A stretch of DNA of 64,000 nucleotides. Source: Balanoglossus misakiensis (Eukaryota; Animalia; Hemichordata). Every line of letters starts with the position of its first letter. The first letter of the stretch is position 1. Positions 38,511 through 61,575 of the stretch are shown one piece after another. The notes beneath the pieces are model-generated. The model made no database searches. It was not told the origin of the DNA and saw only the letters and a list, made by a program, of their open reading frames with translations. The DNA lies in assembly GCA_040954595.2 (NCBI GenBank), contig CM082576.2, positions 4,934,760 to 4,998,759 of the forward strand. Reading direction: 5' to 3'. A program made the position numbers and the translations under genes.

Positions 38511-39433
38511 CAGAGTTTCCGGTAGTTTTTTTCCCCAAGCGTATGCCATACGCAAGAGGTCAATAAAAATGCGTACGAAGGTGATTTAAATGCGTACAAT
38601 GTATTCATATCACATCCATTAGCAAACTGTTGCAAAATAACGCAAAACACTTCAAATGGCACACATTGTAACCAAAAAGAATTCTAAACAGACCAAACAG
38701 CTTTTGACGTGATTTTACGTTTACAGACAAATGACGTCGCTTCACTATGATCAGTGCCTTGCATATGCCGTTTGATGGCCGATTTTTTAAGATCACGAGA
38801 ACCTCGCGAGAAAGCATTCTTTTTGCCATATTTTTCACAAATCTTACAGAAAAGCACGAGTGTCTTTTTTTCTGCCGCTTTCGTCGACGTCGTGCCGTAA
38901 CCACGGATACTCGGCGAGCCACTGATCTTTGAATTCTGTGTGGCCAGTCTTTGCATTCTCTCGCATTTTTTTCACTGGTGGGGCATCCCCCGCTGACTCT
39001 TGGTGTTCCGAATCATCGATTTCAGTGGCTTTCTTTCCATTATCAGTATAGGATTTCGACGTAAATTTAAATGAAAATAAAGTTGACTGTTTTGCCGTCA
39101 TGTTGATCGATATTACACGTACGCAGGCTCACGTACGTGACGCATGGCATGATGATTAGAACGCGCGCTAAACGAAAATTGTTACATTTTATCATGGTCA
39201 AGCGTCTGCGCAAATGGTTTGGAATGTTGCAATTTTATTCAAAACATGTAAGCGTGCACAAGGTGCTGTCTAGTTTGTCGGTCGTTTGATGAGTCTTTTG
39301 TTAGCTCGAACTTTCAATGGCGAAAACAGAGTCCATTTCATTGCGTACGCCAGACGCACTTGTCGGTTCAATATGCGTATAGAAATTTTCCATTGCGTGT
39401 ATTACGCACATTTTTGCGTAACCGGAAACTCTG
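38511..39433 (-). mobile_element. Internally deleted hAT-like DNA transposon, 923 bp, 13-bp TIR CAGAGTTTCCGGT, 6-bp TSD ATACAT
   Basis: CAGAGTTTCCGGT at 38511-38523 and ACCGGAAACTCTG at 39421-39433. ATACAT at 38505-38510 and 39434-39439. Subterminal TGCGTA/TACGCA motifs at both ends and an internal zinc-finger remnant. Confidence 0.88.
38684..39101 (-). pseudogene. Frameshifted, truncated N-terminus of a hAT-type transposase with a TTF/C17orf113(ZNF862)-like zinc finger
   Basis: ORF 38844..39101 gives FKDQWLAEYPWL. After a frameshift near the A-run at about 38865-38872, ORF 38684..38956 gives LFCKICEKYGKKNAFSRGSRDLKKSAIKRHMQGTDH. Together they form the F-x3-W-x3-YPWL...FCxxC...H-x5-H motif. 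Confidence 0.8.
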
Positions 39434-44200: not shown

Positions 44201-44949
44201 AGTTGCCTAGGATTTTACACGCGAGCCAACAGCTGATACATTCTCCTAGTTCTTTAGAAAACTTCACGCTTCTGAGTTTTCTTTTCGGATTTCTTACCGG
44301 AAAAGTGCAAATTTGGGGGAGTGCGTGAACATCTCTCACCTGCAACTCAGCAGTGGATGAAAGTTTCTAGATATCAGTTGAATGGGTAGGTCTGTTTGCT
44401 AGTGCATATATGCTGTCCCATCCTTTAAAGCTTTTGAGGTTCAGAATTTTTTTTTCTGTTGTATATAATTGTACAGTATTATATCTTTTGGCGGTGTTTT
44501 TGAGTAAATAACGTTATTCAAATTCGGTCATATTCCAGAGAAACAGTAGTTTGGTACCACTATTAATGATAACGAATGACTAACAATGATACAGTTTGAA
44601 CATCAGTTAATTGCAACTATTGAGTCATTTCACAAATTAAGATTAACCTGTCGGCATTTTGATGATGCTTTCGCGCTGTAAATTATTTGTGTTCACGAGT
44701 GGAGTACATTTCATCCCCGGTCATTGAAGTTGTATACGTACATGTTCTATCAGTTAACAGTGGTGTGCGTGTGTGTGTTTTCCAATTTATCATTCCAGGG
44801 TTTGTTTATATTTGCAGAAAGACCACCGATTTCATGCTGAAGCACTCCAAAGGTCACGCAGTTGTAGACTCGTTGAAAACCCTCTGTTGTGTTGTTCGAT
44901 TTCAGGACACGCTGATGATAAAGAAGGGATATTCGCACACTGTTTTGAA

Positions 44950-45093
44950 ATGGCTGCCGATCAGGAGAACGCACCCGCCTCTAGCGGTGCCGGGGGAACG
45001 AAGAAGTCGATAAGGGAGCGCGTCCTCTGCGCTGTTTGCTCCGACACAGCCAGTGGTCGTTACTACGGAGCTATCATCTGTGAGGCCTGCAAG
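44950..45093 (+). CDS. 2DBD-NR coding exon 1: short A/B region plus first zinc finger of DBD1 (MAADQEN...[22 protein letters not shown])
   Basis: C-x2-C-x13-C-x2-C finger. ATG in GAAATGG context. Donor AAG|GTAAGC at 45093/45094. Acceptor TTTCAG ends at 44905, so the exon starts at 44906 with an open frame before the ATG. Confidence 0.92.
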
Positions 45094-48000
45094 GTAAGCA
45101 TATAGACCCGGCCGCGGCCGAAAGCTCCGTATCATGCAAGGCTGGGTCGTTTCCGGGTATCCGTGACTGTCGGTGCCGGATGCTGCTTGCAAGCGGGATA
45201 GACTCGTGAAAACATCTGGCCCATATCTTCTAACCGCGGAGTGAAACTGGTTTACACAGCGGGGCCGTTTATTCAATTGTTTTACTCTTGCATTCACCCC
45301 TCACCTTACTTTCTGCAAGGCACTGTAGCTTCAGAAAACAAAATCATTCATCATTCTGTTCTTAAATTTTTATAATTAAAACAAACAGCTGTTTGATATT
45401 AATCTGAGTTTCATAATTTTTGTAGAACCATTGTAATGTTTATTTCCAATCAGGATGTACAAAAATTTTCATGCCTGTTTTCTTCATCTAAATGTTCAAA
45501 ATACTCTATAAATGTAGTTGCGACTATAGCAGTGTCTATCAGTGATAGTGAGAACTGATTTATTGAAATAAATTGGTAGTCATTAGTGTCAGACAGGCCT
45601 GGGTCTATAGAATCTCCTAGAATACATCCTGAGCTTGCCGGAGGCAAAGCTGTCAGAACAGAAAAACAACAATGTTTTGTGATCCATCCTAAGATGATTT
45701 CACATTGATTTTAATACATATTTTGATTAGTTTGTATTTGTTTGTTTGTAGATGCAAAAGTTTTAGCAAACCTTGAACATTCCACATTTTCTGTTTAACT
45801 GCGCAGCATGCCAGGAAACGAGGAGTAGGACAACTCCTATGCCTGCTAATGTCTTTCAGTTAGTATGCAGGCCACAAATACTAAAAGCGTTGATGGAGTT
45901 CTTTTCAAAAATGAAAAAGTTTTCACACGTGTGCCACTTGTATATGTCTTTCTAGTATGACATTTAAATTACTGGTTTCAGACTTGAACAATTAACATTA
46001 TAACTCACTCTAAGTAACCTAAGTTGAATTGCCTCCCTTCAATGTGAAAATGCTTGTCATTACTGTAATAGATGTCTTAGCATCACATAATTCTTATGTA
46101 ATTCTTCCTATGTGGGCTTCTTCGACTTTTGACTGATTTTGCCATGGACACATAACAAACTATAAATCTTGGGTTTTATTGTCTCATGCATTTGTTGTTG
46201 TTTACAAGAATTTCTCGGTGGTAAAAGTGGCAATAGAAACACAGGCCTCTCCAAACACTGGTACCCGTCACTCTAGTGAACAGCAGTTGTACGTACACAC
46301 GCAGCCTGAAGCGAACGCCAAGTCAGATTGCGATGTGACGTCCACTGCAGCGGAGTGAACAGGGCAAGACAGCTGTAGGGACATTATTTACCGATGATTG
46401 CCAATGTTTTGTGCGATGTTTTCATAGTAATGGCCATAAATCATGACTGTCTGATGATGAGAGGGCTGTACGGTCACGTATCCTTCATCATAAATTTGAG
46501 ATGTTTGCAATGTGGCCAGCCATGCATACAACGTCCAGACTTCCTGTACCACAGCCCTTTGTAAGGGACTATACTTCACCAATGTTACCTCCCCTCCATG
46601 GAATGCGAAGGTCCCCAAACATACTCAGATTTTTTTTCCACTTTTTTTTTTTTTTGCATTTGTGGACCTTCGGTGATGTCAAGGACAGAATTTCAGTTTC
46701 ATTGTAATTGCTTTCTCAAAAGTCAAGGTAACATTCAGATATCAGACACAGACACGCATTCCCAGTCAGATGGCTTCTAAACTATTGTATATGTTACACA
46801 ATTTATTGCTAATAGCTCTGGGATCTGGTAACATAGCTCATGCAGCGTACATATTTTCCCTTTAAAAATAGTCACTCGTTGATCAAAATAGAGGCAAAAT
46901 ATTACAGCAGTTGTTGAATTATTCACACACTGACGTAGTTTTTCAGGTCTTTCTGGTAATATGGTGAATAAATTTACTTCTGAAAATATTTATAGCCTTG
47001 CTGATATTTTATCATGATTCTTGATCGGCATTTCATCATTAGTAAAGCGTATACTTTGGAATTCAATCTCCCTTACATGGAAAGAAAAAACTGAAATATT
47101 GCTCTTTCAGTAATTTCAATGTAGTGAGCGAGCGCATTGTGTACATATATTAGAGTTGTCTCCGCCCAGTGTCCCGGGAAGTATGTCAGTAGGACAAATT
47201 CAGTGAAAGTGTTTTATTTCAGTTTAAGGTACATGCAGTTTGCACCTCTGAAATCAAAGTGGTAAACTTTTTCTCGTGTTTTTGCTCTCAAGACAAGGTT
47301 AGAACATATTCTCCCCTAAAATGCATGTGCTACAAAATTCATCATTTTCACCATTTGTCAAAAGTTAATTATTTCTGAACAGGCGACCTTCTAAGGATTG
47401 ATCAGTCACAGGAAATACTTTTCCTCGTCTTTCAATCACCAGCCGTCATCAAGAATGAACTTGGAATGGAACGGACGGGGTGAGGTGTAATGTGCCCTCT
47501 CAACTGCCCTACTTTTTCCCCAAGCAAAAATTTAGCTAGAAATGGGTCATGATACTTGTGCCCCTGGTTTCTAGAAGCAGGTCACCTTCTTAAGTTTCCT
47601 TTGTTCATATGAAATCATTTGCAAATTTCAAGAGTTTGTCCCTCTCTCTACTAAGTTTGGGATAGAGGGTTTGCATCGCTGCACACCTCTGTCTCAAATC
47701 TACCAGAATATCCCAACACCCACACACATACATGTATGGCACACTTGGACATAACTGTGAATTGATGCCAAAATGATAGAAATAATTGTGCTTTTGACAT
47801 CTGATTAACAGGGGAATGTGATAAGACTTTATATTTAGTATTATTTTGCCCACATAGGTATGACCTGACACATGCTTCGTGCCAGGTGTTATTAATTCCG
47901 TCATCAGTCAGGAATATAGAATGCAGAATAATGGCAAGTAAACAGAAAGCTTAGGAATGGCTTTGGTCTTGAAATGAATGATGTTGTTTTTGACAGGACA

Positions 48001-51000
48001 ATTAATTGAACAGATGACCTAGAAAGCCCCAACATTCTCAATAGTCATAAAACCTGACATGTAGAAACAGCTAGCCGTATTGCTCAGGATTGTCAAAATC
48101 ACCACAACAAATATTTCATTTAATTCCTTATGGGAAGAAAGGTGAACGAGGCAGTGGCAGCAATTACACACAGATAAACACTTGCCGATCGAGTTGAATT
48201 TCTTGAGAACCGAATTATGATGTGTATAGATGCAGTAGTAGGCTCTTGTGTGTTCTGAAAGCCACTTAAAAAAGTGTAAGGACTAGCTGTTGCTTAGCTA
48301 TAAACACAACTGCTTGTTTGTATTCAGCAGACAGGCTGCAATGCATGTTGGGTAACCGCGTTTACCCTGTCAGACCCTCCCGATTGGCAACCGTGTTTAA
48401 GTTGTGCCTGCTTCCCTACATATTTCACTCTTGTAACAGTTTCAGGTGCATGTTTTGACTCCTCTCTCATTGTTTGGACGATTTGGCCTTGTCATTTACA
48501 CACAAATACCTTTGTTATGATTGTCTAGGATGCTCTCAAAAGAATTCAGATTGCCACAGTTGCAGTTTGCTACAATGAGACCTAGCAATCACTCAATCAG
48601 CTTTGAAGGATTTGTGAAATAACACAGTTGATTCACAAAACAACATAGCAATAAAATAATCAAAAGTCACAGCTATTAAAAGGTTTCTGGGTGAAAGTTC
48701 CAGTAGGCAATAAACACTCCCACCACTTACAATATGAAACAACCCATGTTTGTTCAATAGCACGGGTGAAACCATATGCAAGAAAATAGGGATGTATGGG
48801 AGGGGGAAGACTTTTTTGTTTTGAATTGATTGTGTATCAAATTAGGCACTTTCAGTGGAACATATGGTGTATTTCCCTACGCTGCTTAAGGACTAGTGAT
48901 TTTCATACATGTTTGTTTCGTGTACTGTAGAATTTGTAGGTCAGAGAGAAAAGAGTAATTGACCCAAAGGGGAAAAACTGACAAATTATTCATGATCACA
49001 TTTATGCAAAGGTTCGTTTTTGACTTTTTGATGATTTTATTCATCTAAATCCATGCAATGTCAAGTAACTAAAAGTTGACTATAAACAGGCAGTTTACAT
49101 GTTTTTACGAGATGTTCATTTTATGAATATGTTTTTTTTACGGGAACTGCTTGCCCTTTTTTATTGCTGCTATTAAAGTCTGAAGAAAGAGATCAGGGCA
49201 CTTGTTGAATTGCCATGCCGCCGGAAAAAAACATGTTCCCGCTAATCTGGATGTAAATTTGGTCATTATCGTTCTCTGGGAAATCAACACATGGATTTAC
49301 TTTATAGGTGAGAAATCATAAGACTCACAGGTACGCAAGCAGCACAAACAAGCCTCCTTTTCCCGTCCACCAACAAGGCACACACACAGACAAACACACT
49401 GTATAGGTTCTGATTTGCTGACGAGTATACTGCTCGGTCTTAAAGAAGTGTTTGTCCGTATGACGTTCTGATTTATTAAAATTTGACATGCATGCAGGCG
49501 CGCATAAATTGAAACCAGTCTGTCAGCTGTCAAGCCCTGTTGATCTGTTCCCAGAGGAGTTGTAAATTCTCTTGTGAAGTTTGGATGATCGATGACCCCT
49601 TGCGCCTTGTTGGGTACTTCGACAGCTCCGGCGAAATGCTGGCGATGCTGATTGAAAGATGGTCGGACAGGTTACACACAAGAATGCACACGCTTGCGTG
49701 CCACCGTGACCCCTTGACAGTGGGAACCAATTCCCCAATTTCAACCAAAAATATCCTTGAGGGGATGTCGGAATTTGAAGATCTGTGTGGTGGATGAGAA
49801 CCGACTCGACTGACCACCACCGAGTGTCAAATGCACACTCTCAAAGTAACAAATCAAATTTCATCGACAACTTGCAGCTTAAAATTCATCTGTGTGTCGT
49901 CTTGACATCTGCTTCTCAGTTCGTCAGGACAGAGTTCCATCTTCATGTTTTGTAAAGGCACATAACTGTTAACTGCAACATTTTAATATTCCCAAACGTT
50001 TTCTTTTTTCATCAGGCACTTTCATTTTCACTGCAAAATCGTTAGCCTGTCGGGCTGTAGCTTGATTCAGTGGAAGGTACTATACACCATGCTTCGATAT
50101 GGTCCGTTGTTTTTCCTTTCAGAGAGAGAATTCTCAGCATGCAAATAAGCTCCTTTGCCAAAAATGCATTGGAGCCAAATACTTCAAATGCCATCGTCCC
50201 TTCCCCTAGTCGAAAAAAACAGAAACAAGCCAAAAATGAAGGATGGATTTCTCATTGCGTTCGGGTGACAAGTGACAAAAAAGGAGAGGGGGGGGGGGGG
50301 GGGGAAACAACAAGGCGATCGGTTGATGATGATGGAATGACATCTGTGAAAGTGGACCAGAAGTGGGGTACCCTGTAGGCCAAAAGTCTCATTTATTGTG
50401 GCCCATTGATACGGGGGCGCAAACAAGTGATCCTTTACCGCTGGCTATTTGGTGAATACATCCACACCCGTCCACTAACGTGTCATCTAATATAAAGTGC
50501 CTCAACACGACTACTTGGGCCCTAAGAATTCAAACTATCATTGGAAGTGACAGGACAATTAGTAAGCTGTTCTCCCCGTGTCACTCATTGTTATAGATGT
50601 AACTGAAGGCTTGTACCAGTTGTAGACAGAGATTGATGAAAGAAAGACCAAGCGAATACCAATGCAGGGTTCGTCTGTCCTTTCTGCACCCAGGCATAGA
50701 TTTTCTTCTGATTCTAAATTACCAAAAATACATGTAAAGTGTGAAACTTGCTCATTTGTGTGATGACACTCAGACAGGTACATACATGTAGCATATGGCC
50801 AATAAAAAGGACTATACAGTGGGTACTTTGGTATAAAACTTTTCCTGATACATATACCATCCCAACTGGTTAAAAGTTAAAATTGATGATGTGCATACAA
50901 GATAGATGGATGACTTGGAAATGTCTATAGCTGGGACCAACCAGGGACGTACACTGGCTTCTTTTGTTGTCCCCCCATTGTATGCTTTGTATCAAAACCC

Positions 51001-54000
51001 TGACAGCTTCCACCCCTCCCCCGCTATGAACTGTCTATCACAGTGATTGATTCGCAACACACTCAGCTGAAACTGACAGTAATTTGTAGTGTGTTTTGCC
51101 TGAGTTTTTCCCCCAAGAAGTCACCCCCCAACCCTCCCGTAGAAATATGCATGTGATGTGTGTGTTATGCCAACCCCTCCACCGGAGGCAAACCTGATGT
51201 GTGTCAGTGGAGCCGAGACATTTACATATCACCTCAGCTGGTGAAGTATGTAACGAGTACATGATCTCCCTAGAGATGCATTCCCTTCTTAGCCGTTTCT
51301 GGCCTTCCACACCACGGCCAATACATCACACAATTACACCAATTGGGATCAACAGAGGGAAAATTTGATTTGCTTGTTTTTTGTTGGGCAGCCAGGCTGA
51401 TCTGATGAATTGGTTTCTGACACTGTGCTTGCACCAACCCAATTGGCCTATCCCATAATTGCTCACAATTGACACCGCGATGGCTTTAACAGACAGACCA
51501 GCTGGTGGTACAACCAGTGCTCTCAGTCTGAGACGCTGTAAACAATAGTTCTCCCAACTTCGATTGTGTTTAATACATGCAAATCCGGGCTATCAGTGTC
51601 ATTTTGTAGTCTGGTCTTTTTGCCGAAATTGTTCAGACAGAAATCAGAAACCCCATTGGAGTCATATCATTTGCATGGTAGGCGGAGAGGGGATCATATG
51701 AGGCTTTCAGTTGCACATGAATGCTGCTTTAAAGCCTTGAGGCGAATTCCCCTATGTCATGTACCAGACCTTGTCACCTGTTTGCGATTATCAGTTTCTT
51801 AAACACGTCTGTTTTGTCTCACAGTATCCCAGTGAAGCTAATTATAGTAATCATCAGAGACTTTTTGGTCTTTTGACTGGAGGGTCTCTGTGTCTGAAAT
51901 TAATCATTCAGATTCATTCGGACTTGAATTTATTGAATTGGATATGGCTAGGTTCAGTCAGAAAAACAAGAATGGCAAACTTGCGTGGTCTCTGGAATTA
52001 AATTCACCTGGAGTGCGCTTGTTCCTCAAGTGTTATGAGAAAAACACAATTTTGAAAGACCAGTGAAGTGCCAACCAATGTAAAATATGCATACCAAAAA
52101 TTTTCCCTGGGGGGTTTGGTGGGTAGAAGAGAGACAAAAGTCATATTACTGGCAAAGAATCAAGCAGATTGTGCATTTTATATATAAGTACCATAGATAA
52201 TTTTCCAGGAAGTGAAATTTTTGTCTTTTTTGTCTTCAGATTTTCTTCATACGGAGCACAAGAAAAGGAGAACCAGAGTTTGTGTGTGCCAATGGACAAA
52301 GATGTGAAATAACACCAACTACAAGGCTTCTGTGTCAGGCCTGTCGATTCAGAAAATGTATCGCTGTTGGCATGTGCAGGAAAGGTGAGAATAGTCTAGC
52401 CGTTTTTGGGCGATGACTGAATATATTTCTTTGTCATTTCAAATTCTTAAAATATCAGCCATTATATAGGTAATCACTTTATCAGAGGTGTCAAGAAAGC
52501 TATTGACAGTTATGTTTAAATAAGATTGCTTATCAAATGTACAGCTTAGATCTTGTATATCAGGGAGTGAGCCAGAGGTTTTCACATTGGTTGAAGCATC
52601 TGTGCACCTGGTTTGGCAAAAAAGGTGACCAATCAGAGAAACATGTACTACTCTTTCACTTTACACTCTACAGGTTTGCAACAGTAACTTTACTAAAGAA
52701 CACATGGCTAAACAGTGGTTTTCTGGCATGTAGCTTATGCTCATGTATGTCAAATGTATATTAACAGGAGTGTTTAATTTTTTTACCCATCAGAAAAAAC
52801 ACCCCGAAGACCTACACCAGACCAGATCCTTTGTCGTGTGTGTTTAGATGTATCATCTGGGATCCATTTTGGTGTATACACCTGTGAAGGCTGTAAGGTG
52901 AGCAAATAGGGACGGCAATACCCAATAGAATCAGTAAACTTGGGATCTAATAAAAAACTGGTCAATTCTTTGATTTCTTTCTAAGTTTTGACAAAACCTG
53001 CTGGTCTCATTTTAGTAACTTTGTTTTTTGTTTCAAGGCCCTTCACTGGTGTCAGAATAAACTGTAACAGTGTTACACATAATAATAAGTAAATAGGTAA
53101 ATATGTGAAGAAAGAAGAAACCATAATATTTTAAACAAATGTGACTTTTCTTTTTTGTTTCTACAGGGTTTCTTTCGGCGCAGTTCCAATTCCGGGGATC
53201 ATGTGAATTATAAATGCCAAGGCAACCGAGACTGTGAAATAACACCGACCACTCGCAATCTCTGTCGATATTGTCGATACCACAAATGTCTTGCCGAAGG
53301 AATGTCTCGCGATAGTAAGACATCTAACTCTATGAGTAATTATTAATTTTTTATTAGTTCCTTCTTTTTTTCTGACTTTATTTTATTTGTGCATGTGTGT
53401 ATGCCACTGTTTTAGTTTGTGATGTTAAAACTATAACACAGCTTGATACTAATGATCTTGTTCCTAATTATGCTTGAGTTTTTCATATGTTTCAGCTTAT
53501 GGCTGTCTCTCTACTCTTAGTTTTTCTTTGTACAGGTATAGTCTTGTAGTTTTATAAGTGATGATTTTAGCGGAAGAAGGGAAAAAATACATGCCCTTGT
53601 AGTGTGTGTGATGGGTTTGAACAGAACTGAAAGAGAGAGAGTATTTATTAAATGTATCACTCAAGTCCTAAAATGCTGAAATATTGTTCCACTTTAATGT
53701 GATGTAACTTTTTTTGTGAAGTAATCATTGGAATTTTCACCTATACAATTTTGGCCATTCTCTCAAGCATCCATTCCATCTCACCTTGACCTCATGGCTC
53801 AAATGCTTCAAATTGTTTTGACCACAAATGACAACACTGGGAAGGTCATTTGGGGTCATCAGGCCTTATCTTTGTACAGAAAAAAAAATGTGGGATTCTC
53901 ATATCTCAAACATGCTGTTTACAATGCAATCTCAAAAAAATTTGATTTTGTGATATGAATGTTGATATTATTGGCGCACCCCAAACCTCAGACAGGTTGG

Positions 54001-57000
54001 CACTTTTGTAGTTATACCGGTATTGTGAATACGGTTTTGCCACCAGTTGTAATTTGGTTGAAATAGACAAGTTATAGATAAAACGAATAGGAAGAATACA
54101 TAACTAGTAAGATATGTAGAAATACAAATTTACTGTAATTCCCAGGGATTCAAGTGCCTGCGTTTAGGGCGTCAAATGCAATCCCACTTTCTCCTGTCAC
54201 TTCCCATGCAAATCCATTTCCTGGTATCCATTTCACATTTGGACTAAGGGTGAAATTCCTGCCGTCATAATTGTTGATCAAATTCACGAAAGCAAATACG
54301 TTCAAAAGGGACTCATTTCAGTTCATTAATTCACACAGCTATTGGGACTTTTTTCCTGCATCCACCTCTGCATGACTTATTATTTTTGTCTCACACAATA
54401 ATCAACTAACTTTGCAAGTTACATTCCTAAAAAAGCGCCTCACATATTACCATATCTTGTTCGATTTCCAAGAAATCCAACTTGGACGTCACCACAAAGA
54501 TGGCAAGGATGACAAGAACGAACATTCCGCCTTTCACGGTGTTTCAATGTCATCTGCAGAAAATGACAGTAAGTTTATAAAAGTCATATCAAATATTTAT
54601 CTTTAATGTATAAGAAGGTGTTTTCAACCAGCTAACTACCGTATAGCCCTTATCTGCATCATTGGACAGTAGCCATTCTATATGGTCAGAATTATGTCAT
54701 AGTACAGTACTGGTACTGGGAATAGTGTTTTCTGAGAATCCCATGACTAATTTGAGAAGATTACCATTCTGACAGTAGAGTTTATTCTATTGGCAATCAT
54801 TGAGTTGATTAATCAGTTTGTTAAACTCTCAAAACTGTTGACGTCATGGCTTTACCTGCTATCTGTTGGTGATATTAACTATCAGTTGGACAGCGTACCT
54901 GTCAGCACCCAAAACTTGACCTGTTCACCCCCAAATCCCTGTGGTGTGACCTATCTGACCATTGTCAACAATGGGAACATTGTCCAGGATAGGGGGATTC
55001 TTCAGTGATGAGGGTGTCTAGGTATTTAACGGTGGTGCAAATGTTAGCCTATCAATTAAACATCCTGGCCACCAACTATGAGATGTACAACCATGGTTCT
55101 CCACAAGTGGACACAGTTATATTTATGTAACATCTGCCCCACAACAGGAAATAACAAAAATGAGACGAAAAATCCATTGAGATATAAAATGGTTAAATAA
55201 ATTTCACCAGTACATTTAATGACATATATCAAAATAAAGCCTTACAAAAAGATAAGTTAAAGTTTGAATTTTTTTTTGCAATCAACGGTTGTTAACATCT
55301 TAGAAAATGCTAATATGGACAGTTAGCATTCTGTTCTTGTCTTTTGTCTTGCCAGGTTCAAAATTGGCCACTGTGCGTGGAGGTTCATCCATAAAGACAG
55401 AGCAATCCTCCAACGAGAGCTACCAGTATGACACAACCACTCAGTTTTGGGTCAACAAAGAAGGAACGCCGGAAATCTCTGCTGTCTCGGCCAACTTCCA
55501 AGAGCTGGAAATCAAGCAGGATAGCAACCTGTCGCCGCCACACGCAGCAGCCAACGGATACCAAGACCCGCAGCATGACGGCGGTAGCTATGGTGACAGC
55601 GGCAAGTTTTATCCAGCGGAGTCGGGCGAGCACCTGATCTCTCAGCAAGCGGACGACATGAACCAATACTACAACGAACAGATGCACAATCTGCCGCCGG
55701 AGATGGAAGTCAGTGGATTCACCGGAGGCAGCAACTTGGTGGCCATTCAGAAGATAATCGACTCCGAAGACTATCCGACCGATCTGAATGTTGCATCGTC
55801 GTCGTATACAAGCAGTGGTGCCACGCAACACAAACCGACGTGCACCCTTGATTTGCAGAGCTGCTCCCCACCGATCACCCAGAGCAACTACTACATGATG
55901 CAGTCGGAAGGCAAAAGCAAGGCGCAAAAGACCGAACCAAAGTACACCAATGCCCCTGCGACCGAAAATCAGCTGCCCACCCAGTACAACACAGCGTACT
56001 TGGTGAACTTGGAGAAGGAGTACCCAAGAAACACGGCCGAGGCCCAGTACCAGATTTCCCCAACCTGTATGATGTCCAGCCCAGGTCAACAGCATTCCAC
56101 GGGTGAGATGTATCACGGCAGCACAGGCAGCGAGAATCCGCAAGGTTACTCAGTACTCAAGGAGGAAGTGTTCCCCACGTCGAGAAACGAGCAATGCCAG
56201 TTGCAATCCAACCCTGTCAAGAGCCCAAGAACCAACGTCATAAAGTACGCCAATGAGCACCACCATATGAAGACTGAGCCTCCAGGGCCCAGCGGCTACC
56301 AAATGCCGGAGGTCTCCAGACAAAATGTCTACCTTCCCCCGGGCAACAGCTGCTGCACGGGGACAGCTCACATCCGACCCAAAACCCAAGACCAGTATTT
56401 CCAACCCACCACCATGGCACCTGTCACTTCTCACATAACTCCGCACAAAAATCCAGAGCCTTACTACCCGCCAGCGTTCGAGCCCATACCGGAAATCTCT
56501 CTGGGCGAGGAACTCCACCAGCACGTTCCGCCGGCCACGAAACAAGATGTCATCGAATGCTGGAGTTACTGCCCCAATTCGCATTGCCAAACCAACACAG
56601 TGAGCGTCACTTACCCGACGTTCGCCACAAGGGCCATGAATCATCGCCCCGAGAGTTCCTTGGACTGTAAGGGCAACCAGAGTGTTTCCCACGCGCAGCT
56701 CAGCCAAGACGTGAAACCAGTACGCCCTGTGTTCCCCGAGCTTGAACTCTACGCCCAAGGTATGAACAGTGCAGGTTTGGGCGCGTCGACGAACCACGGG
56801 GGTCCGAGGCACCACCACCAGCCTGCAGGGAGGGTGCACAAAGATAGCATGACGTGTTCACATAGGCACCAAAACTATGGTGAACCTCAGGACATTAACC
56901 CCCCTCTCAAGAATGTGCAGCACGAAGACACAGGCCTGGAAGGGTTCCAAGAATTCTGGGAGAGAGTAGCGCGGGACCTGTTGGACGAACCCAAGACAAG

Positions 57001-60000
57001 CTGTCCACACGACGGCACCTTGAAGACGCAGTCCTCGAGTGCAAACAACTCCGAAGCAGACCGGCCCGCCAGGCAAGATCTGGACCTCATCGGAAACAAG
57101 TGCGTTCAAACTCCCCACAAAAACTTTTTGAAAAAGCAGTACCCCAGCACTCAGCCGGCCTTCGCGGTGCCCATCATCACATATCCCAATGTTGTGAGTT
57201 CCAAATCAATGAAGAGGGAACATCCAGATAATGCAAGTGAGGTGCCACCGGCCAAGACTCTCAATGTTACCCCAGAACAGATGAGAAGATACATCAAAGA
57301 GGCCTACAATTGCATGCATCAAGCCATGACTGCATATTGTGACTCAGAGGAACACTGCAAGGCATCAGAAGAGGTAGGAGGAAATTATTAATAAGTGTTT
57401 ATGTTTATTGAACTTTGTGAATTTTTTCTGAGGAATATACTTTTCAGTCAAAAATCTTTCTTGCACAACTGCATGATGCTCGCCTAGTACAGTACAGTAC
57501 AGTACAGTACAGTACAGTGCAGTGCAGTGCAGTACAGTGCAGTGCAGTGCAGTGCAGTGCAGTACAGTACAGTACAGTACAGTGCAGTTTTTCATAACAA
57601 TTTGGATCATCTTATCACACTAGGCAATATTTAAATAGGGTTCAGATTTGAAAATTTTGTATTCTGAACAATGTGCCATATTTCTGACTTTAGTTGTGTA
57701 GATCAGGTCAGCCTGTTGGGCCGGCATGGGAGATGGTGAAGGAACGTGTAATCTGCCAAGATTCATCAGTGGTCAAGTTTGTCAAGAAAGTACCTGGTAG
57801 GTTGAAATCTATCATCTGTAATTTCGGGTGTTGTGCTGAAAATCAAACAATATTCAATTGGCCCAAAAATCAAAGAATAATCTGTCCTTGAGATTTTGTT
57901 CTGATACTTTTCAACAAGTATGGAAATCAACAGGCTCATGAATGGTAAGATTAATTTATTTCTGAGGACAGGTGTAAATTATGACCGGCATTTTCAAGAT
58001 TTCCTCTGTTTCATATACAATTGTACAGCTAGGCTTAATTTTGTGTATGAATAGTATTTTTTTTACATGTACATGTAGTTGTTACCTTTGAAATATACAT
58101 CTGTATTTCAATTGTTTATTTCCAAAATTATTTCTAAAAAATACAAATACTGACAAAGAATCAAGGGAAAAAATATTATCCATTTGTGACAGATTGTATA
58201 TGAAAAAAGAGAGTAAAAATTCGCTTTCTGCATGTGTTGTGTAGGACAGTGTGTCACTAGGGCAGGTACACAGCTATGAACTGTCCTTGAACTCTTTCCA
58301 GTACATGTAGTTGTAGCCACGCTAAATGAAACATCCATACCAGTGTGTGTAGCTTTAGCCGAGAAATGATGATGAGCCACTATGTTGTTGATCTCACTCA
58401 GTTTCTCTAATTAACTTAGATAATTATTATTTATTGAATATGATTAAGTTTTAGCTTAATTGCTTTTGTGTGCCTTGAAATTCATTCGATCTACATGTAT
58501 ATTGAAAATTTGGATAATTGTTCAGTATAAAAATTGTTTTGTCTGAATGTGGAATATTTTTTATAACGTGTCAAAAGCACCAATGAGATATACCCCATAC
58601 TTAATTTTTGGTCAATTTGAGATGTTCATCCTTCAGATGTAATTTCATCCTTCAATTGAATTTGACCTAACAGTTATTTCCTGGGAGGACAACCATGTGT
58701 CTGATTCTGAACTACAGCTTGAAGTATGAAGGAATGATGTTGTGTTTCATATAACTACAGTGGCAGTTCTGATCCTGTTTTTTTTTATTATATTGGTATT
58801 ATCGTAGCCAAACACAAATGCAGTTGCTATATTGTTTATTGCAGCCGCTACTCTAAAAATAAAAGCTCCTATTTGGATATACCACAGGATGATCTATGAG
58901 GGGACTAGTTGATTTCTTCGGTTCAAGGCCAGTTCATACAACCGTGTACTTTACCCTACAAAGTGTCACGCTACCCTAGTGAGATTTTCTTGAGGCTGAA
59001 TGACTTACAACTTCCTATTCTTGCAAAAGAGACACGTGTTAAGAGACTTTCACTATCAATCGCATTTTTGGTATTTTTTGAATTTTTCTCATTCCACTTC
59101 AGATAAATAGGACCCGCTCTTTTATTTTCACACACACACACCCCCACCACCACCAAAGTATGATACAGACCTTATGTTTATGTGGGCAAGGTTGGACCCC
59201 TGCACTTAGAAATAGGGGTGATAAGGTTTAACAAGTGTAATCGTTAAGAAAGCTGCGAATAGAACTCAGAAAAAAAGCAAAAGTTTGTGATGATCCTGTA
59301 CATGGAAGAGTTGAGTGAATTCTTGTTGCAGGGTTATACAGAGTTTAGATTTGATAATTTCGAAACGGGGCCTTCGTTTCCTAGCAAGAATAGGTGTTGT
59401 AAATTTTACACATGTTGACATATGTATAAGTACAACATCATAAATAGTTGATTTCAAGCCAGATAGTCCGGGCATCAGTGAAATTCTGTCCTGTTCCCCA
59501 GATGTGTGACCTGATAAGGTGAAGGATATATGCCACGGTGAAAAGTGGTACAAATTTGTACTTTTTGTACAATTGTCTGTTAATAAATGCCATTTCAAGG
59601 CACACAGGTAATTGTTATAAAATAACCACTTTATGGAATCTTGTAAAGTTTTTGAACTGAGTACTTTCAGCACCATTTCATCAAACAAGTGCTTTTGATT
59701 CTGTGTTTCTAGGTTTTCGTGACCTGATTATGGGTGACCAGATCATGCTGGTAAAGAACAGTGCTTTTGCTGGACAGGCTCCATACATGTCGCACCACAA
59801 CGACATCTACACCTGGTTCGTCAAGACGGTGCTGGAAATGAAAGGCTTGAAGGCCGTCGTCAGTTACTTCAAAGAGATCCTCCAGGGCTTCGTCATGGAT
59901 TTCCAAAAACTCAACTTGAATCAAGAGCAGCTGGGGCTGTACACAGCCGTGGTGGTCACCAACCCTAGTGAGTATATAGACAACCCCTGTTTTCTGCTGT

Positions 60001-61575
60001 GTTTTGGTTTAGTCCTGTAGTCTTCAATGGTGTGGTTGGAACCACATGTGGTTGGAAAGGGGTGAAAGGGTTTTATTTAAGTATGTTGCTCACTTTCACT
60101 GTCTACGTGCGCATGCGAGTGCACACACACACACACACACACACACTTACAAACTCACTCATTCAGATCAACATCAATGTATTGCTGTCAGAGTAAATGG
60201 GCAAAAGAGTACATAGTAACACACAGCTGATGGGAAAGTACACGAGTTGCACGCCTTCACTTTGATAAATGAGACCTTGAAACATTCTATTAAGGGGTGC
60301 AGCTTTAAGCGCACTCTGCGGGTACAAGGACGACTGGATGCATGCATCATCCTTCTACCAGTGTTTTCACTGAATGCACTAGAACTCCCACTACAGTATT
60401 TCGTCTTCATCAAAAATATTAATGAATATCCTTCAAATGAACAACTGTCTTGTAACTGTCTGGTGATGTGTTTAAAACCCCTGACATCCACAGATGTAAT
60501 TTTAAACACAAAAATTCTGTTTACCATCAATGCCAACAGATGCACATCACCTGTGAATTTCTTACTCATAGCCATTAAGCGTCTTGTACCCATATACAAG
60601 GTGGCCTGCATGCATTCTAACATGTTTATATCCATTCTATAAATAATTATTATTAGGCGATTCATGTATGTACCACACATGTGGATATGTTTGCTGTGAA
60701 GAAATGGTCAACTTTCATAGAGAATGATGGTCATATTTGGGAATACTTCACAATCCCCCCCAAAATTCTCAGTTGTATATATTAATTGTTCTTTTATTCT
60801 GATGCTGAATCTGTCTTTTGATTTTTTCTTTTCCTGTACAGATGCTCCACAATTAGCAGACAGGGAGTCTGTTGCCAAATTAAATCAAGTGATCAGTGAG
60901 GCCTTGAAAACTTCTATCAAAGGTAGGCATGCAGTCATTTCCATTCAGGACAAGGTCATTATACGATTAGTATTCCAAGCCATGCATGAGAATCATCAGT
61001 TCTGATATAAAAACAGCGAGTGTATGTTCTCTACATCTGTCCTGTAAACATTGAATGAATTGCCCGCATGTGCTTGTCCTTGTCTTACTTTATATGTACA
61101 CGTGGCCTGCTTTCCTGTCAGTATTTGATTAATATGTCAGGCAAACGTTTACTTTTAATAGTTTCATTTGAGAATTGCAATTATATTCTGCAATTTTTTT
61201 TTAATTGGTGTAATGTTTTAGAATATGTGTTGAATTTGTTTGTACATTCCAAAGTTCATTATTTGTCCTAGTTGTTGTGTGTATACTGCACATAGAAGTT
61301 TTAATTATGGAGACTTCTAAATTAAAATTCAGTTTTCAAAGAACCAATGATCGAGTTGGGTATTGTTGGTTTGTATTTTCTTTACTCTTAATCAACATTT
61401 TTCCTTTTGTTTATATTTTGCAGAATCTGGGAGAAGTATGGAACTGTACAACACTCTCCTTGATTTCTTGCCGGAACTCAGTCGAATGAATAAAGTTCTC
61501 AAGAATGGATTTCGAACTGGTCAGCCGTCAGTGAATTTTGAGATACCAGCTCTGTCAGCAGAGCTCTATTACTAA
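44950..61575 (+). CDS. Nuclear receptor with two DNA-binding domains (2DBD-NR), spliced gene, about 1081 aa; join(44950..45093,52240..52384,52794..52897,53167..53314,54473..54568,55356..57373,57694..57796,59713..59967,60842..60922,61424..61575)
   Basis: Manual splicing. All 9 introns are GT..AG with phases 0,1,0,1,1,0,1,1,1, and the exons sum to 3246 nt = 1082 codons including TAA. The product has two complete C4 nuclear-receptor DBDs, a T-box-like KIQLGR, the LBD signature [24 protein letters not shown] and a C-terminal AF-2-like PALSAELYY. The N-terminus may extend upstream. Confidence 0.93.
52240..52384 (+). CDS. 2DBD-NR coding exon 2: second finger of DBD1 ([48 protein letters not shown])
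   Basis: Not in the ORF track; translated by hand. Polypyrimidine tract plus CAG acceptor at 52239, donor G|GTGAGA. Carries FFxRS, C-x5-C-x9-C-x2-C and CxxVGM motifs. Confidence 0.93.
52794..52897 (+). CDS. 2DBD-NR coding exon 3: inter-DBD linker plus first finger of DBD2 ([35 protein letters not shown])
   Basis: Not in the ORF track. CAG acceptor at 52793, donor AAG|GTGAGC. Canonical GxHFGVxTCEGCK. Confidence 0.94.
53167..53314 (+). CDS. 2DBD-NR coding exon 4: second finger of DBD2 ([49 protein letters not shown])
   Basis: Lies within ORF 53155..53346. Acceptor CTACAG, donor A|GTAAGA. Confidence 0.95.
54473..54568 (+). CDS. 2DBD-NR coding exon 5: C-terminal extension/T-box ([32 protein letters not shown])
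   Basis: GMSRD-KIQLGR matches the nuclear-receptor GMSxxAVxFGR pattern. Phase 1-1, acceptor TTTCCAAG, donor A|GTAAGT. Confidence 0.85.
55356..57373 (+). CDS. 2DBD-NR coding exon 6: 2018-nt exon encoding a long Q/P/S/T-rich hinge and probable LBD helix 1 ([14 protein letters not shown])
   Basis: 694-codon stop-free ORF (55307..57391), visibly more GC-rich than the flanking introns. Acceptor TTGCCAG at 55355 (phase 1), donor GAG|GTAGGA (phase 0). Confidence 0.9.
57486..57588. repeat. Compound pentanucleotide microsatellite (AGTAC/AGTGC) x20 in the intron after coding exon 6
   Basis: Directly visible tandem array. Confidence 0.97.
57694..57796 (+). CDS. 2DBD-NR coding exon 7: LBD helix 3 ([34 protein letters not shown])
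   Basis: Acceptor CTTTAG, donor G|GTAGGT. Encodes the first half of the LBD signature motif. Confidence 0.88.
59713..59967 (+). CDS. 2DBD-NR coding exon 8: LBD helices 4-8 ([19 protein letters not shown]...[19 protein letters not shown])
   Basis: PGFxxLxxxDQxxLxK signature and a helix-8-like LxLxxE...NP. Acceptor TTTCTAG, donor A|GTGAGT. Confidence 0.92.
60122..60147. repeat. (CA)n microsatellite
   Basis: Directly visible, about 13 units. Confidence 0.95.
60842..60922 (+). CDS. 2DBD-NR coding exon 9: LBD helix 9 ([27 protein letters not shown])
   Basis: Resembles the D-x-P-G-L-x-D-x-x-x-V-x-x-L-Q helix-9 pattern. Acceptor TGTACAG, donor G|GTAGGC. Confidence 0.88.
61424..61575 (+). CDS. 2DBD-NR terminal coding exon: LBD helices 10-12 ([24 protein letters not shown]...PALSAELYY*)
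   Basis: LLxxLPEL helix-10 motif and AF-2-like end. Acceptor TTTTGCAG, stop TAA at 61573-61575. Confidence 0.9.

Follow-up and report, generated by a model that had tools for sequence, protein, structure and literature searches.

Introduction

What kind of receptor carries isoleucine at the end of the P-box of its first DNA-binding domain (DBD), and what would that residue do there? The question is raised by a stretch of 64,000 nucleotides from the hemichordate Balanoglossus misakiensis (GenBank assembly GCA_040954595.2, contig CM082576.2, positions 4,934,760 to 4,998,759, forward strand; hereafter the window, with positions counted from its first letter), in which a ten-exon model translates into 1,088 amino acids with no internal stop and joins two tandem C4 DBDs and one ligand-binding domain (LBD) in one reading frame. 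A preliminary description, made from the letters alone, had read CEACKI in DBD1 and CEGCKG in DBD2 and had assigned the gene to the nuclear receptors with two DBDs (2DBD-NRs), and this membership holds: the tandem DBDs, each with C-X2-C-X13-C-X2-C and C-X5-C-X9-C-X2-C spacing, are followed by an LBD, and the trees place the gene in the family. Wu and LoVerde (2023, PMC10497141; this and other papers are cited for the passages and tables that bear on these receptors or their P-boxes) group the family by phylogeny, with EACKK-EGCKG in NRA, LPCKS-EGCKK in NRB and EACKS-EGCKG in echinoderm NRB, and list divergent P-boxes within NRB; hemichordates are unmentioned in the main text of that survey. 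Our comparisons point to a real and conserved P-box variant, which we did not find described; the gene that bears it belongs to a known group, of which it is likely the second paralogue in hemichordates.

A P-box split by an intron

The genomic DNA does encode CEACKI. The exon end at 45093 reads TGT GAG GCC TGC AAG before the donor GTAAGC (8/9 consensus), and from 52240, behind ttttttgtcttcAG (a pyrimidine tract and AG), the frame continues with ATT TTC TTC ATA CGG AGC, that is, IFFIRS, just as the preliminary description had read the two sides of what is now the intron 45094-52239; the same residues meet in Ptychodera flava. It had also called 52239, which is the G of the AG, the only in-frame acceptor: this is indeed the sole site that continues the DBD, but other in-frame AGs lie nearby, the upstream ones running into stops and the one at 52279 removing the recognition helix. 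Of 410 AG sites scanned in the intron, three are followed by xF[FY], and the DBD continues from 52240 only. Because ATT directly precedes the FF codons in one exon, no acceptor could skip the Ile, and a hypothetical micro-exon in the P-box intron could only add residues. A second copy of the DBD1 second exon was not found in the window with a profile of 118 homologous DBD1 segments, the matches being 52216 (E 9e-22) and the DBD2 exon, with the next best at E 0.22. On the genomic sequence, a micro-exon or duplicated exon that would restore K or S is thus rejected, and so is the other acceptor or micro-exon giving CEACKK that had been named as a refuting result. The ATT codon is one base away from the Ser codon AGT. 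The canonical CEGCKG of DBD2 stands as described, read CEGCK/GFFRRS across the junction 52897/53167.

When the hinge exon was searched against 3,881 candidates, a single relative came up, the P. flava RefSeq model XP_070577170.1, and its identical CEACKIFFIRS argues against a sequencing error. The two proteins agree at 66/67 residues of DBD1, 16/16 of the linker, 65/68 of DBD2 and 164/185 of the C-terminal LBD part, against 467/726 (64%) of the hinge; given the contrast between the DBD region and the hinge, DBD1 is not decaying, and we infer that it is under strong constraint. In the P. flava orthologue, Pfam finds zf-C4 twice and Hormone_recep above cut-off, and AlphaFold2, run on a 48-row alignment headed by this protein, predicts confident DBDs and LBD around a disordered hinge, with a helix at 77-87 that spans both Ile residues of DBD1 (block predicted local distance difference test, pLDDT, 93-97) and with the activation function 2 (AF-2) helix still predicted at 1120-1126. 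Foldseek matches the model to NR1 LBDs such as those of ROR, VDR and FXR.

Placement among the two-DBD receptors

Of 359 candidates from a tandem-DBD search, 12 reached E<=1e-40, namely the P. flava protein, ten from echinoderms and one from Glandiceps talaboti, and the 11 besides P. flava all carry EACKS-EGCKG with FFIRS; a Saccoglossus protein (P0151) has EACKS as well. In tandem-DBD trees the window gene falls on the NRB side (100/99), also with the P-box column masked, and the NRA rows form a clade that excludes it both there (100/99) and in the LBD tree (95/94). The LBD tree (31 rows) joins it to echinoderm and hemichordate NRB (97/93), four single-DBD receptors standing between these and spiralian NRB. 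Three groupings are rejected by approximately unbiased (AU) tests: the gene beside P. flava XP_070577168 (p 1e-4), beside the EACKR pair (p 9e-6) or beside amphioxus NRA (p 0.002). The preliminary description had set the CEACK core beside the CEACKK of flatworm receptors; this comparison is not supported, since the trees give the ambulacrarian EACKS group and the AU tests reject sister-grouping with the hemichordate and amphioxus EACKK or EACKR genes. The P-P module, EACKI-EGCKG, has neither the EACKK of NRA nor the EACKS of NRB and is one residue off the latter, and the Grip box QLGRH departs by K to Q from the NRB pattern, KxGR(P/H) after a 5-residue pre-Grip, and does not fit the NRA pattern RxGRQ(P/S). 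On these sequence comparisons the gene is a member of 2DBD-NRB, beside the echinoderm and hemichordate EACKS genes and not the flatworm-type EACKK genes. Because the trees place it there, the P-box most likely changed from Ser to Ile, and the informative revertant would be I-to-S and not I-to-K.

Set against echinoderm 2DBD-NRB (NR7B of Wu and LoVerde, 2023, PMC10497141; EACKS-EGCKG), the window protein has Ile for Ser, a DBD spacing of 83 residues where theirs is 84-85, QLGRH for KLGRH in the Grip box, an optional 7-residue insert in the C-terminal extension and Ser for Phe in AF-2, and its LBD, from a separate paralogue lineage, is only 25-28% identical to theirs. With 2DBD-NRA of flatworms, molluscs and amphioxus (EACKK-EGCKG) it has in common tandem DBDs, the EACK core, FF[ILMV]R and EGCKG in DBD2, but its DBD1 is only 40-55% identical to theirs, and NRA has the Grip box RxGRQ and forms a separate clade (100/99). 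Homodimerisation through the LBD, with no RXR pairing, is shown for flatworm 2DBD-NRs only (PMC1810520).

A likely second hemichordate NRB paralogue

Hemichordates also possess EACKS copies of the same group (Glandiceps talaboti XP_077991522.1; Saccoglossus XP_077866503.1 and XP_006818146.1), and the window protein is 67% identical to the Glandiceps one in DBD1 and 71% in DBD2. The EACKS copy is a paralogue and not the orthologue: the window LBD shares 30% identity with the Glandiceps protein, against 46% with P0157, a Saccoglossus model that comprises the LBD only. In the LBD tree the window, P. flava and P0157 form a clade (100/99), sister to one of Glandiceps, a second Saccoglossus protein (P0039) and the echinoderms (98/94), and AU rejects an LBD clade of window, P. 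flava and Glandiceps but not a duplication confined to hemichordates (p 0.11). As P0157 and P0039 fall in separate LBD clades, Saccoglossus apparently holds both NRB lineages, and by its LBD the gene is thus likely a second NRB paralogue of hemichordates, one that Saccoglossus has as well and that we did not find described. The window and P. flava have the Grip box QLGRH and the AF-2 Ser for Phe in common as traits of this paralogue.

Four two-DBD genes are found in P. flava (P0014, P0026, P0042 and P0001; XP_070577101/2, 168, 173-175 and 170), three NRA-type ones with EACKR, EACKK and EACKK and the EACKI gene; their contigs are equal in length and three of the four have adjacent accession numbers, which suggests a cluster. 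EACKR, also present in Saccoglossus P0178, is a further P-box absent from published lists.

How unusual are the P-box and FFIRS?

The P-box was tallied in 156 proteins, of which 87 with two DBDs 78-112 residues apart were kept and 69 (single-DBD proteins, arrays, fragments) dropped. The last P-box residue of DBD1 is K in 46, S in 35, I in 3, T in 2 and R in 1. The three Ile rows are P. flava, an MPCKI protein (P0030) and an Echinostoma model (P0136), the last of which was rejected as a further EACKI case, a gene-model insert creating a false EACKI. The tabulation of P-box pairs that the preliminary description had called for leaves P. flava as the only genuine EACKI protein among the tallied rows, and its view of CEACKI as non-canonical is upheld: EACKI is not in the P-box tables of Wu and LoVerde (PMC10497141, supplements S1 and S2 included), and a literature search, outside which lay subscription journals and most supplements, hemichordate genome annotation tables among them, that could list the gene, returned no match for CEACKI. 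Six proteins (P0013, P0018, P0025, P0059, P0067 and P0079) have four to six nuclear-receptor-type DBDs with highly divergent P-boxes.

FFIRS had been taken as a sign of an altered DBD1, and here the family tells otherwise. The variable residue of FFxR is I, L, M or V in DBD1 of 87/87 rows (one being the P0136 artefact) and R in DBD2 of 86/87, and FFIRS is the commonest DBD1 continuation (26/102 multi-DBD rows), so that it marks the tandem-DBD family and not this gene; an exception is Sme2DBD-NRA3, a published NRA row with K at this DBD1 position (PMC10497141). An asymmetric P-box pair, too, is the norm of the family in published work.

What might DBD1 do?

With DBD1 positions given steroid-receptor numbers by motif, the last P-box residue is position 29, which in the steroid-receptor scan is one of two main specificity sites; in that mutant literature Lys32 bonds the G and T specific to the oestrogen response element (ERE), Glu-Gly-Val and Glu-Ser-Val variants are weak on all 16 half-sites, and strong A4 preference requires Gly25 together with Val29 (PMC4500092, PMC11105156, PMC11838366). 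The EAKI genotype is absent from the main texts of the scanning papers and from the examined passages of one supplement. The ketosteroid receptors GR, AR, PR and MR (GSCKV) resemble the window protein, as a functional analogy only, in their beta-branched hydrophobic residue at the last P-box position, and differ in having Gly-Ser at the first two positions, in keeping Lys32 and in bearing one DBD per chain.

By analogy with these mutants, with which the earlier suggestion of a weakened or altered DBD1 specificity agrees, we give an even chance to the reading that the gene encodes an intact NRB two-DBD receptor, likely the second hemichordate paralogue, whose DBD1 is a low-affinity, retuned helper of a canonical DBD2. 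DBD2 (EGCKG FFRRS) would anchor on an AGGTCA-type half-site, and DBD1, held by the short conserved linker, would read a neighbouring half-site with its two central bases relaxed or shifted towards A/T. In common with the whole family, DBD1 has no Lys or Arg at position 32; the beta-branched Ile at position 29 could pack on thymine methyls, and a helix with E-A-K-I and no Lys32 would read DNA weakly and with relaxed specificity while tethered to DBD2. The composite site would then be asymmetric and differ from the one read by the EACKS sister, and Ser to Ile, together with the changed Grip box and AF-2, would separate the targets of this paralogue from those of the EACKS copy.

Several points weigh against this reading. 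Placement inside the ambulacrarian group is weak in the DBD trees (73/72 to 84/89), and AU rejects neither a place beside spiralian NRB (p 0.48) nor one on the A/B branch (p 0.35, DBDs); this last value comes from the constraint of EACKI with all NRA and does not discriminate, since without a root that constraint amounts to no more than a place on the A/B branch. Neither the DBD1 of the Saccoglossus orthologue nor an EACKS copy of P. flava was found by a shorter-homologue search that was itself insensitive, having missed the known short P0151. EACKI is known in two species only, the last P-box position varies in the family, and 66/67 identity is uninformative for any one column. The binding behaviour of EACKI is predicted from mutants of other proteins, the steroid-receptor analogue being Val and not Ile in a background that retains Lys32, and retuning is less well supported than weakening since Glu25 is kept here and A4 preference needs both Gly25 and Val29. 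The anchoring step is weakened as well, because a Schistosoma 2DBD protein with EGCKG in DBD2 gave no shift of AGGTCA repeats in electrophoretic mobility shift assays (data not shown there; PMC1810520).

A more far-reaching version, in which the paralogue, born of a duplication in the ancestor of ambulacrarians or of hemichordates, converged on the P-box solution of the glucocorticoid receptor, one polypeptide would read a hybrid of a steroid response element (SRE)-like (DBD1) and an AGGTCA (DBD2) site, and a 7-residue donor choice would switch the reading of the DBD2 flank, strikes us as distinctly unlikely.

Among the competing explanations, it is unlikely, if credible, that the change was near-neutral, with position 29 of DBD1 little used for bases and Ile fixed on a fast-evolving stem without change of targets: five residues occur there in the family, Ile independently in the MPCKI protein (P0030), and a long stem (0.35-0.52 changes per column) leads to the two EACKI proteins, so that many sites changed together; but within each group position 29 hardly varies (K in NRA, S in NRB), and it is among the two main specificity sites of the steroid-receptor scan. 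A full switch of DBD1 to a steroid-receptor-like half-site (AGGACA/AGAACA), bound with good affinity and converging on the GR-type Val, would suit the absence of the ERE-favouring Lys32, the packing of Val29 against the thymine methyl opposite A4 and the preference for SRE that small hydrophobics confer at site 4; we consider it very unlikely, as Val29 with Glu25 retained gives weak binding and no A4 preference.

It is highly improbable that DBD1 has become a module for binding protein or RNA, with a hydrophobic face on its recognition helix. Two Ile lie on the modelled helix, and a cestode 2DBD model has one base-reading DBD, though there it is DBD1 (PMC6844482); however, the helix Glu, Lys and Arg and all eight zinc ligands are retained, position 32 is hydrophobic family-wide and no partner is known. 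The protein-interaction role mooted in the preliminary description gains no direct support. Barely conceivable, finally, is a gene-model or assembly artefact that hides a true mRNA with CEACKS or CEACKK, for, although the junction is read from genomic DNA alone, the intron lies inside the P-box and the Echinostoma model has its insert-made EACKI at the same spot, one exon holds the Ile codon and the FF codons side by side, neither an alternative acceptor nor an alternative exon was found in the window, and the independent P. flava model has the same residue.

Remaining exons and neighbourhood

Table 1. Parts of the two-DBD receptor gene, in window positions.
Feature	Positions	Strand	Remark
DBD1 first-finger exon	44950..45093	+	ends CEACK, phase 0 donor
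GT-AG intron splitting the P-box	45094..52239	+	7,146 bp, phase 0; alternative DBD exon not found inside
ATT codon, Ile at last P-box position (steroid-receptor position 29)	52240..52242	+	Ser in relatives
DBD1 second exon: IFFIRS, D-box, second zinc finger	52240..52384	+	zf-C4 E 2.9e-11
Inter-DBD linker and DBD2 first finger	52794..52897	+	ends CEGCK, phase 0
DBD2 second exon, GFFRRS	53167..53335	+	two in-frame donors, 53314 and 53335
C-terminal extension exon, Grip box QLGRH	54473..54568	+	KLGRH in EACKS-type relatives shown
Large hinge exon, predicted disordered, and LBD helix 1	55356..57373	+	
LBD exon (helix 3)	57694..57796	+	
LBD exon	59713..59967	+	
LBD exon	60842..60922	+	
Last exon, divergent AF-2 and stop	61424..61575	+	ALSAELYY vs ALFAEINL-type in relatives

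The linker has 16 residues by the boundaries used here, most echinoderm members having one more; most 2DBD-NRs have 17-22 residues between the DBDs, by a boundary definition that may differ from ours (PMC10497141). After DBD2, the two in-frame donors lie 21 nt apart (53314, 6/9 consensus; 53335, 5/9), the former giving the family-normal 5-residue pre-Grip and the latter seven more residues (pre-Grip 12), identical in the P. flava model, so that alternative splicing of the C-terminal extension is possible. Of the AF-2 core of ambulacrarian NRB (two hydrophobics, x, Glu, hydrophobic), the Glu is kept, but both the window protein and P. flava have Ser in place of the second hydrophobic, which is Phe in all the ambulacrarian relatives shown except one with another hydrophobic; this Ser may impair coactivator binding.

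Translation may start elsewhere than at the ATG at 44950: there is a candidate acceptor at 44905/44906, the in-frame stretch 44905-44949 (+) resembles the N-terminus of the P. flava model, and that model is longer by 33 residues, so that another coding exon may precede the one ending in CEACK. Introns interrupt the two DBDs at matching points, in phase 0 after CK (45093/52897) and in phase 1 shortly after GM (52384/53314), as would fit a DBD unit of two exons that was duplicated in tandem. A neighbouring receptor gene was not found in the window by tblastn. A short frame on the reverse strand (38687-38971) has a C17orf113-type zinc finger (Pfam E 3e-12) and is likely a transposon-derived remnant.

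Significance

The literature examined establishes no DNA target for a two-DBD receptor. Hemichordates hold several two-DBD genes, three of NRA type plus the EACKI gene in P. flava and apparently two NRB genes in Saccoglossus, and close paralogues with Ser and Ile at a main specificity position offer a clean comparison for binding assays; if the glucocorticoid-receptor-like convergence were true, the EACKI gene and its EACKS sister would amount to a natural experiment on the role of DBD1, with a single residue changed. What is reported here extends a known receptor family modestly and is not a new system.

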